From a virus (Duplodnaviria; Heunggongvirae; Uroviricota; Caudoviricetes), in IMG/VR virus record IMGVR_UViG_2681813201_000021: 40,199 bases of DNA; one strand, given 5' to 3'. Position 1 is the stretch's first letter. The number at the start of each line of letters is the position of its first letter. Of the stretch, positions 36,283 through 37,522 are shown one piece after another. The notes beneath the pieces are model-generated. The model was not told the DNA's origin. It saw nothing but the letters and a program-made list of their open reading frames with translations, and ran no database searches. The position numbers were made by a program, and so were the translations under genes.

Positions 36283-36323
36283 AACCGTAGCACGTCGTAT
36301 GCAAGAAGATCGTGCTGCGGTTT
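36283..36323. terminator. Bidirectional hairpin between convergent pin and GIY-YIG genes
   Basis: AACCGTAGCACG ... CGTGCTGCGGTT stem with one mismatch; T-rich flanks on both strands. Confidence 0.5.
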
Positions 36324-36342
36324 ATGCTTATCACTTAAAGAC

Positions 36343-37116
36343 TCAAAAATTAGGTGAGTAACGGACCGGGGACATAGCTCCTTTTTTTCTTAATTCATCT
36401 GGTATTTTTTTTCCAAGATAAAGATTTGCTATTTCAGGTGGGGCTTCTCGACCTTCAAAACCATAGCGAGAACTTTGTGTTGCCTCAAAGTCCGGATCCT
36501 CGTCCCAGTATTTCATCGTAGGGAAATTTTCACGTGTTGATTTGAGCCATTTATCAGCAATGAAAACCCCTCGAACGATCCCCCTTACAGTAGCAAGAAT
36601 GACTTCTGCTTGGCTGGCGCGAGAGACATTAATGCGCCAGCTAAATCGAACCGCATCATAAAGCTCTGAATCCTTTGCACTTCTGTTAACGGAAATCATT
36701 AATGCTTTATGATGAAATGTTATGGTTTCGGGTTGATATGTTGCTATCAACTCTTTGACATGCGCGGCGCCGAATTCATTGCTGCCAGCACCATTCATGA
36801 TATTCGTTAACCCAGGGTAGGCATCAATAAGTGCTGCTTCAACTTCGTACGCCGTCTTTTCATCAGTCATTCCGTGTCGATGGATGACATGGATAACCTC
36901 AAGTCCTGCTAACCTTATTTCTCTAATTTGCTTTAGCTTGTTGCTCAGTAACTCGTCATCATCAGTCGCTGCCACTTCACCGCGCATATGGGCAAATACG
37001 CGGTTACCTTTGCCTTTCCCTACATAGAAGGTGCTTCCGTCCCTCGGATCAATCAATCGGTATACATACCAGCCAAGGTGTTCAATTACTCCAGAAGGAA
37101 ACTCAGTAATATCCAT
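36343..37116 (-). CDS. GIY-YIG nuclease-domain protein with uncharacterised C-terminal domain
   Basis: N-terminal GWYVYRL...[14 protein letters not shown] fits the GIY-(10 aa)-YVG-...R...H GIY-YIG pattern; 257 aa; lower GC than the phage structural genes. Confidence 0.6.
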
Positions 37117-37522
37117 TTTGCAATATCTATGAAGAATTATTTGTGAGACGTATATTAATGATCATTGCAAGGGCTCACAACCAGTAGTGTTGAGAAAACC
37201 ATCGGAGAAATGAGGCTAAGCCTTTGAATTTACATAGTACAAAAAAGATACTTTTCCTCATAATGTGAGCTAATTTTATGTTTCGTTTGATGATTGGACC
37301 GGTCTCGAAAACCGTAGACACATAGTATGCGTTAATTTATGAACAAACTACTTGTCTGCTGTTTTTCTGTCATTAGTCGTATATAGAATGATTCTCTATG
37401 CCTAACAAAGCATCACCAGTGCTAGATTACGTTGTAGTCACTGTTTAAATATCCAGATAAAACATTTCCTTCTGGGTTGAATGAGTGATAAAGTTTCACC
37501 CATTAGACCCCTTGGAGGAATT

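Follow-up and report, generated by a model that had tools for sequence, protein, structure and literature searches.

A probable CMoRE/PD-T4-3 type IV restriction endonuclease gene in the post-pin cargo slot of an e14-like prophage

A GIY-YIG protein between pin and the EcoRII genes

The subject of this report is a minus-strand gene close to one end of a stretch of viral DNA of 40,199 nucleotides (IMG/VR record IMGVR_UViG_2681813201_000021, Caudoviricetes), which we call the window and which represents a complete e14-like prophage. The gene occupies positions 36343..37116, begins with ATG and encodes 257 amino acids followed by a stop codon, as indicated by the open reading frame (ORF) call and by the matches to PADLOC and to proteins of known structure described below. 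Domain matches on both sides place it between a gene for a Pin-type serine invertase and those of an EcoRII-type restriction-modification (R-M) pair. In all of this the locus agrees with an earlier note, made from the letters alone, which had also remarked on its low G+C content and AT-rich flank: the ORF has 43.8% G+C and the adjoining spacer (37117-37522) 35.5%, against 55.6% in the phage structural genes.

The protein carries the GIY-YIG motif set that the note had recognized, with an N-terminus of the form GWYVYRL...FYVGKG. A Pfam search recovered the LEM-3_GIY-YIG family (PF22945) over residues 28-110 with an E-value of 2.1e-14 and a score of 54.2 bits (cut-off 27), the generic GIY-YIG model PF01541 staying below its threshold (13.9 vs 22.6). 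The N-terminal nuclease region, supported by the Pfam match and by the motif as described in PMC12923530, corresponds to 36787..37080 (-). No Pfam family matched residues ~111-257, and no extra domain was found there; hence the note was right in calling the C-terminal part unassigned, although this part measures ~147 residues rather than 160. An NCBIfam search with the protein gave no match, and RefSeq labels the gene only as a "LEM-3-like GIY-YIG domain-containing protein".

The family to which the protein belongs became apparent from three other searches. The PADLOC model PD-T4-3 (PDLC04031) matched it with an E-value of 2.4e-140, far above chance, over profile positions 1-256 of 256, and the PHROG family phrog_5356, of unknown function, likewise matched over the full length (E 2e-143). 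A sequence search of the PDB recovered two crystallized CMoRE proteins, as PD-T4-3 is called in PMC12923530 (Nat Commun, January 2026): that of Escherichia coli O157:H7 (9U75/9U8D; E 3.7e-172), with 253 of 257 residues identical (98.4%), and that of E. coli APEC O1 (9U7U/9U7Z), with 219 of 257 (85.2%). Residues 111-257 align without gaps to both. Only four differences, T51A, E55D, Q169K and N197H, separate the window protein from its O157:H7 counterpart, and none falls on a residue that was individually mutated in PMC12923530. Position 55 belongs to a tract replaced as a whole in that work; it is acidic in the window protein, which shares the form DDDE with APEC O1, the O157:H7 protein having DDDD. 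Other E. coli copies lie 1 to 3 residues away from the window protein.

The features reported for the family can all be located in the window protein. Its GIYxY-YIG motif, the family hallmark with tyrosines Y17, Y19 and Y31 (PMC12923530), takes the form G15-W-Y17-V-Y19 ... F30-Y31-V-G33, with all three tyrosines present. R39, E93 and N105, which by the canonical layout of the GIY-YIG fold would be the catalytic set, are present and, together with the three tyrosines, invariant in an alignment with distant phage homologues. The acidic tract D52-D53-D54-E55 (36952..36963, -) corresponds to an inserted loop to which an autoinhibitory role has been ascribed (PMC12923530), and V92 and L96 are retained, as is Y127, which lies in the C-terminal modification-sensing domain (~residues 111-257; 36346..36786, -), so named from the 9U7Z/9U8D structures (PMC12923530). 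The window protein thus has in common with the O157:H7 and APEC O1 enzymes the length of 257 residues, the motif, the acidic loop, the oligomer-interface residues and Y127. With every sequence-level feature of the family in place, it would appear to be a CMoRE/PD-T4-3 member of type I architecture. On this similarity we hold it very probable that the gene encodes a near-identical CMoRE/PD-T4-3, a single-protein type IV endonuclease directed against the modified DNA of T-even phages.

Known function, predicted action and alternative readings

The gene family is already known, having been found in 2022, with modification dependence shown in 2025 and structure and mechanism reported in January 2026. 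PD-T4-3 was first found in strain ECOR68 (Vassallo et al. 2022); the main text of that paper does not treat it individually and mentions neither ECOR68 nor e14. A combination of in vivo and in vitro experiments with crystallography established CMoRE as a type IV restriction endonuclease that requires 5-hydroxymethylcytosine (5hmC) or glucosyl-5hmC (PMC12923530). The O157:H7 enzyme lowers the efficiency of plating of T2, T4 and T6 by ~5 logs in a direct, non-abortive manner, is active from its native promoter, restricts T4(hmC) while T4(C) is resistant, and degrades DNA containing 5hmC or glucosyl-5hmC, DNA with cytosine or 5-methylcytosine (5mC) being neither bound nor cut (PMC12923530). Its cleavage pattern is CN11/N9G, that is, two modified cytosines 21 bp apart, with 2-nt 3' overhangs; the protein is a tetramer made of two dimers, and active-site mutants are dead (PMC12923530). 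Changing all four residues of the O157:H7 acidic tract DDDD to alanine leads to cleavage of ordinary DNA and to toxicity (PMC12923530). In co-crystals with 5hm-dCTP (9U7Z/9U8D) Y127's main-chain oxygen touches the 5-hydroxymethyl group, and the fold of this C-terminal sensor has no known homologue (PMC12923530). A Capnocytophaga homologue, 48% identical, cuts T4 DNA and mom-modified Mu DNA and spares T4-GT7 DNA, acting on modified DNA only (PMC12366544). In the native host NILS69, where PD-T4-3 is one of only two systems found active, its deletion results in sensitivity to Tevenvirinae. The modification-dependent, single-gene restriction factor that the earlier note had envisaged as swapped defence cargo is therefore well matched by the 98.4% identity to the O157:H7 enzyme. 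The novelty which the note implied does not hold, as the experiments it suggested have essentially been published for this family.

If the window allele acts as the O157:H7 protein does, its C-terminal domain would bind 5hmC or glucosyl-hmC in incoming DNA, a dimer within the tetramer would read two modified cytosines at the 21-bp spacing of CN11/N9G, and the N-terminal GIY-YIG domain would cleave between them to leave 2-nt 3' overhangs. The acidic loop above the active site would meanwhile exclude ordinary DNA and 5mC-containing host DNA, so that incoming T-even phage DNA would be destroyed directly and non-abortively. As CMoRE neither binds nor cuts 5mC DNA, it would be expected to tolerate the 5mC laid down by the EcoRII methylase. 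Judging from the two specificities, the systems may further complement each other, with EcoRII taking unmodified CCWGG sites and CMoRE the hypermodified DNA that escapes EcoRII. Expression of CMoRE would presumably proceed from the conserved 200-bp region upstream of the gene.

A comparison with other enzymes brings out what is particular to this type of nuclease. McrA (EcoKMcrA) is likewise a single-gene, modification-dependent type IV enzyme and occupies the same attR-proximal slot behind pinE in e14-type prophages; the sequences of the two are unrelated and McrA lies on the opposite strand to CMoRE. The nuclease domain of McrA is of the HNH kind; the enzyme's targets are 5mC and 5hmC, and glucosylated hmC is not known to be one. 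Unlike McrA, CMoRE uses the GIY-YIG fold, ignores 5mC and cuts glucosyl-hmC. PMC12529663 describes an action of McrA on the DNA of T-even phages. With I-TevI, the Seg proteins and the restriction enzymes Eco29kI and Hpy188I, CMoRE shares the GIY-YIG catalytic fold and its Tyr/Arg/Glu/Asn set; it is set apart from all of them by the extra tyrosine, the acidic insert and a targeting based on modification rather than sequence, and it has none of the DNA-binding modules of the Tev/Seg type. PvuRts1I combines a Vsr/PD-(D/E)XK-like nuclease with an SRA-like sensor; in CMoRE the nuclease is of the GIY-YIG type and the fold of the sensor is without known homologue. Nevertheless, PvuRts1I and AbaSI resemble CMoRE in their 5hmC/5ghmC substrate, in recognizing two modified cytosines ~21-22 bp apart, and in cleaving between them with 2-nt 3' overhangs (PMC12923530).

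Lytic jumbo phages, as well as a phage of ~107-108 kb that carries a ParA gene, also have full-length homologues of CMoRE with 33-46% identity. They were located in Serratia phage Moabite (L008:2501-3265), Pseudomonas phage OBP (L009:2492-3253), Klebsiella phage N1M2 and, next to parA, in Escherichia phage PhiR41_1 (L010:2456-3223), and are annotated as homing or GIY-YIG endonucleases. These proteins keep Y17, Y19, Y31, R39, E93, N105 and the C-terminal domain; the four-residue acidic tract is missing from them. Their use could be in attacking co-infecting phages whose DNA is modified, or else their specificity could be different.

Such annotations (the OBP and N1M2 proteins are called "putative homing nuclease"), along with a weak PHROG match to the homing-endonuclease family phrog_314 (E 0.0021), would favor a free-standing GIY-YIG homing endonuclease, which cuts its cognate site where the gene is lacking and spreads by repair copying. 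This was the alternative that the earlier note had set against its own proposal, and we judge it extremely unlikely. Pfam detected no Tev/Seg-type DNA-binding module (NUMOD, IENR1 or helix-turn-helix); no conserved target gene encloses or adjoins the gene, which lies instead beside attR in a cargo slot of variable content; and the near-identical O157:H7 protein cuts T4 DNA genome-wide, following only the CN11/N9G modification pattern and sparing host DNA (PMC12923530). The absence of modules, the cargo-slot location and the modification-dependent genome-wide cleavage together largely refute homing. The LEM-3-like label could also be taken, by analogy with LEM-3/ANKLE1 or UvrC, to indicate a structure-specific nuclease for the repair or processing of prophage DNA. 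However, the label covers the catalytic fold alone (residues 28-110), the C-terminal domain binds 5hm-dCTP, and the published phenotype and biochemistry are those of modification-dependent phage restriction (PMC12923530). Further, the gene is accessory and missing from most relatives of the window prophage. With the label reduced to a statement about the fold, and in view of the sensor domain and restriction phenotype, we rejected this reading as most improbable.

A copy of the right family might, on the other hand, be unexpressed or non-functional in the lysogen. For the window gene, prediction gave neither a convincing promoter nor a convincing ribosome-binding site; related copies belong to prophages in decay, one example being the O157:H7 locus, where the neighboring genes are frameshifted; and many predicted defence systems are inactive in their native host. 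Yet the ORF is intact, and hundreds of genomes carry copies that deviate from it by only 1 to 4 conservative residues, which argues for purifying selection; the 200 bp upstream are conserved with the O157:H7 copy that is natively active; and in NILS69 PD-T4-3 belongs to the pair of systems that do function in their own host. Hence, we regard a silent copy as very unlikely. As for the CMoRE/PD-T4-3 assignment itself and the action proposed above, several points weigh against them. The APEC O1 orthologue is weak under its own promoter (PMC12923530), so that protection can vary by allele; PD-T4-3 and an R-M island were merely additive in NILS69; and neither a good sigma-70 consensus nor a Shine-Dalgarno sequence was found upstream of the window gene. 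The suggested complementarity with EcoRII would follow from the specificities of the two systems, and the activity of the window allele and its expression in the lysogen would be extrapolated from the 98.4%-identical O157:H7 protein.

The e14-type prophage and its flanking regions

The window opens with a tyrosine integrase gene (1-1164, -), after which come the immunity, replication and lysis regions and an HK97-type head. The contractile tail and baseplate that come next are Mu-like, and an invertible tail-fibre segment and pin follow them. BLAST comparison with the e14 element of E. coli K-12 showed collinear blocks of 86-97% identity spanning xisE/ymfH, ymfL-oweE, aaaE-ymfR-beeE, jayE-ymfQ-stfP, tfaE and stfE-pinE; K-12 e14 is thus a deleted relative of the window phage. 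In close relatives the prophage lies at thrW (tRNA-Thr) beside proA, and not in icd. The pin gene that bounds the cargo slot is pinE-like (35728..36282, +; Pfam Resolvase 1.6e-51 and HTH_7), with ~92% DNA identity to K-12 pinE; its ORF extends over 35692-36282, the likely start being 35728 by the RefSeq annotation of pinE. The last block of e14 homology stops at window position 36283, which corresponds to 14241 in the K-12 locus (L002), and the pinE stop codon ends one base earlier, at 14240, with mcrA as the next gene in K-12. From these two facts it follows that the earlier note, in assigning the gene to the mcrA slot, was correct to the nucleotide.

This slot next to attR is variable in its content. 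After pin, K-12 e14 has mcrA; O157:H7 has CMoRE alone, also adjoining pinE and without the EcoRII pair, its homology to the window ending at 37317 within the AT-rich spacer; the window and its close relatives have CMoRE with EcoRII distal to it; JNEC-KY180 has a gene for a hypothetical protein of 215 amino acids; and APEC O78 has one of 165 amino acids followed by a TrlF-family ATPase. CMoRE would be moron cargo, carried by an e14-like prophage at its pin-distal end in the place that the HNH type IV enzyme McrA takes in K-12 e14. A literature search for the pinE/mcrA slot as a hotspot returned general statements only.

The pin and CMoRE genes are convergent, and the interval that separates them contains a stable hairpin (36282..36323), which starts at the left border of the cargo module and has a fold energy of -22.5 kcal/mol (z -4.05) on the plus strand and -18.1 kcal/mol (z -2.39) on the minus strand. 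The hairpin lacks a clear T-run, and a scan for terminators was negative there; placed exactly at the module edge, it may end both the pin and the CMoRE transcripts as a bidirectional terminator. When 36150-37600 was scanned for promoters and terminators, no signal exceeded the shuffle expectation and the CMoRE strand of the spacer had no site, and a lenient promoter scan upstream of CMoRE reached 8/12 matches at best. As neither scan gave a convincing site, we leave the CMoRE promoter unassigned, the presumed native promoter region being the ~200 bp shared with O157:H7 (37117..37317, -).

Two parts make up the 406-bp spacer: the 200 bp nearest CMoRE belong with the CMoRE module and the remainder with the EcoRII module; homology to plasmid EcoRII systems (~80% identity) begins near 37441. 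The EcoRII-type (Dcm-type) C5 cytosine methyltransferase gene (37523..38956, +; DNA_methylase 4.7e-78, DNA_meth_N 7.1e-27) encodes a protein identical to WP_001288444.1. Its longest ORF runs from 37481 (491 amino acids), and the identical RefSeq protein is annotated with 477. Given this annotation and the GGAGGA preceding the ATG, the start is probably at 37523, and the true spacer would therefore be 37117-37522. The restriction endonuclease gene (38991..40199, -) has the Pfam domains EcoRII-N and EcoRII-C and matches PDB 1NA6 over the full length (E 1.3e-242).

Several other features of the window deserve mention. Near the integrase, 1732-2727 (-) encodes a protein of 331 residues in which Pfam recognizes a PAPS-reductase domain (E 2e-08). 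Its weak PADLOC matches to SspD (1.8e-14) and BrxP probably reflect the shared domain only and not a defence system. Three opposite-strand genes (12466-14193, -; 205, 114 and 249 amino acids), with the Q-antiterminator-like region on one side and the lysis genes on the other, matched nothing in Pfam or PADLOC and only PHROGs of unknown function (4575, 5728 and 5464). In a related prophage of strain DP051 this position holds a metallo-β-lactamase (MBL)-fold hydrolase and two hypothetical proteins instead; morons or cargo may thus have a second site here. The invertible tail-fibre segment of 1.58 kb is flanked by 20-nt inverted repeats (34050-34069 and 35647-35666; 95% complementary), which are expected to be the Pin crossover sites, and has alternative fibre C-termini with tail-fibre assembly genes on opposite strands. 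In strain 40EC the segment matches in the inverted orientation and contains an inserted IS26.

Mobility and frequency of the CMoRE-EcoRII block

CMoRE, M.EcoRII and R.EcoRII are contained in a block of 4178 bp, which extends from window position 36282 to ~262 bp past the end of the window and whose left edge is the first base after the pin stop codon. This block, also located at L007:4001-8177 and L004:20591-24767, is 99.5% identical in two unrelated types of prophage, one e14-like and integrated at thrW, the other lambdoid and integrated at ssrA, lying in both at the tail-fibre/attR end; thus, CMoRE and EcoRII move together as a unit. Among 5426 complete E. coli genomes, the DNA of the locus is present in 868 and the whole stretch from pin to EcoRII in 241. 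By a rough estimate from an evenly spaced sample of the match list, about half of the CMoRE copies adjoin pin without EcoRII. The EcoRII genes of the window show only ~80% DNA identity to plasmid pairs of the EcoRII type (e.g. NZ_CP139184.1, 8851-11608), the copy in the prophage representing a separate lineage of the EcoRII system. One could go further and regard the 4.18-kb block as a co-transferred and co-regulated two-layer cassette, in which CMoRE expression is linked, by way of the AT-rich, divergent 406-bp spacer, to the N-terminal autoregulatory domain of the EcoRII methylase, or in which the pairing is synergistic rather than additive, but this we consider unlikely.

As a discovery of a gene the finding carries little weight, the family being known and the allele 98% identical to a crystallized one, although the RefSeq annotation of the gene could be improved. 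Its modest interest lies in the prophage context, which offers a clean example, at the DNA level, of a hotspot of prophage defence: at the nucleotide that follows the pin stop codon, McrA of the HNH fold, CMoRE of the GIY-YIG fold and other cargo interchange, and CMoRE and EcoRII pass jointly, as one unit, between prophages of different types.
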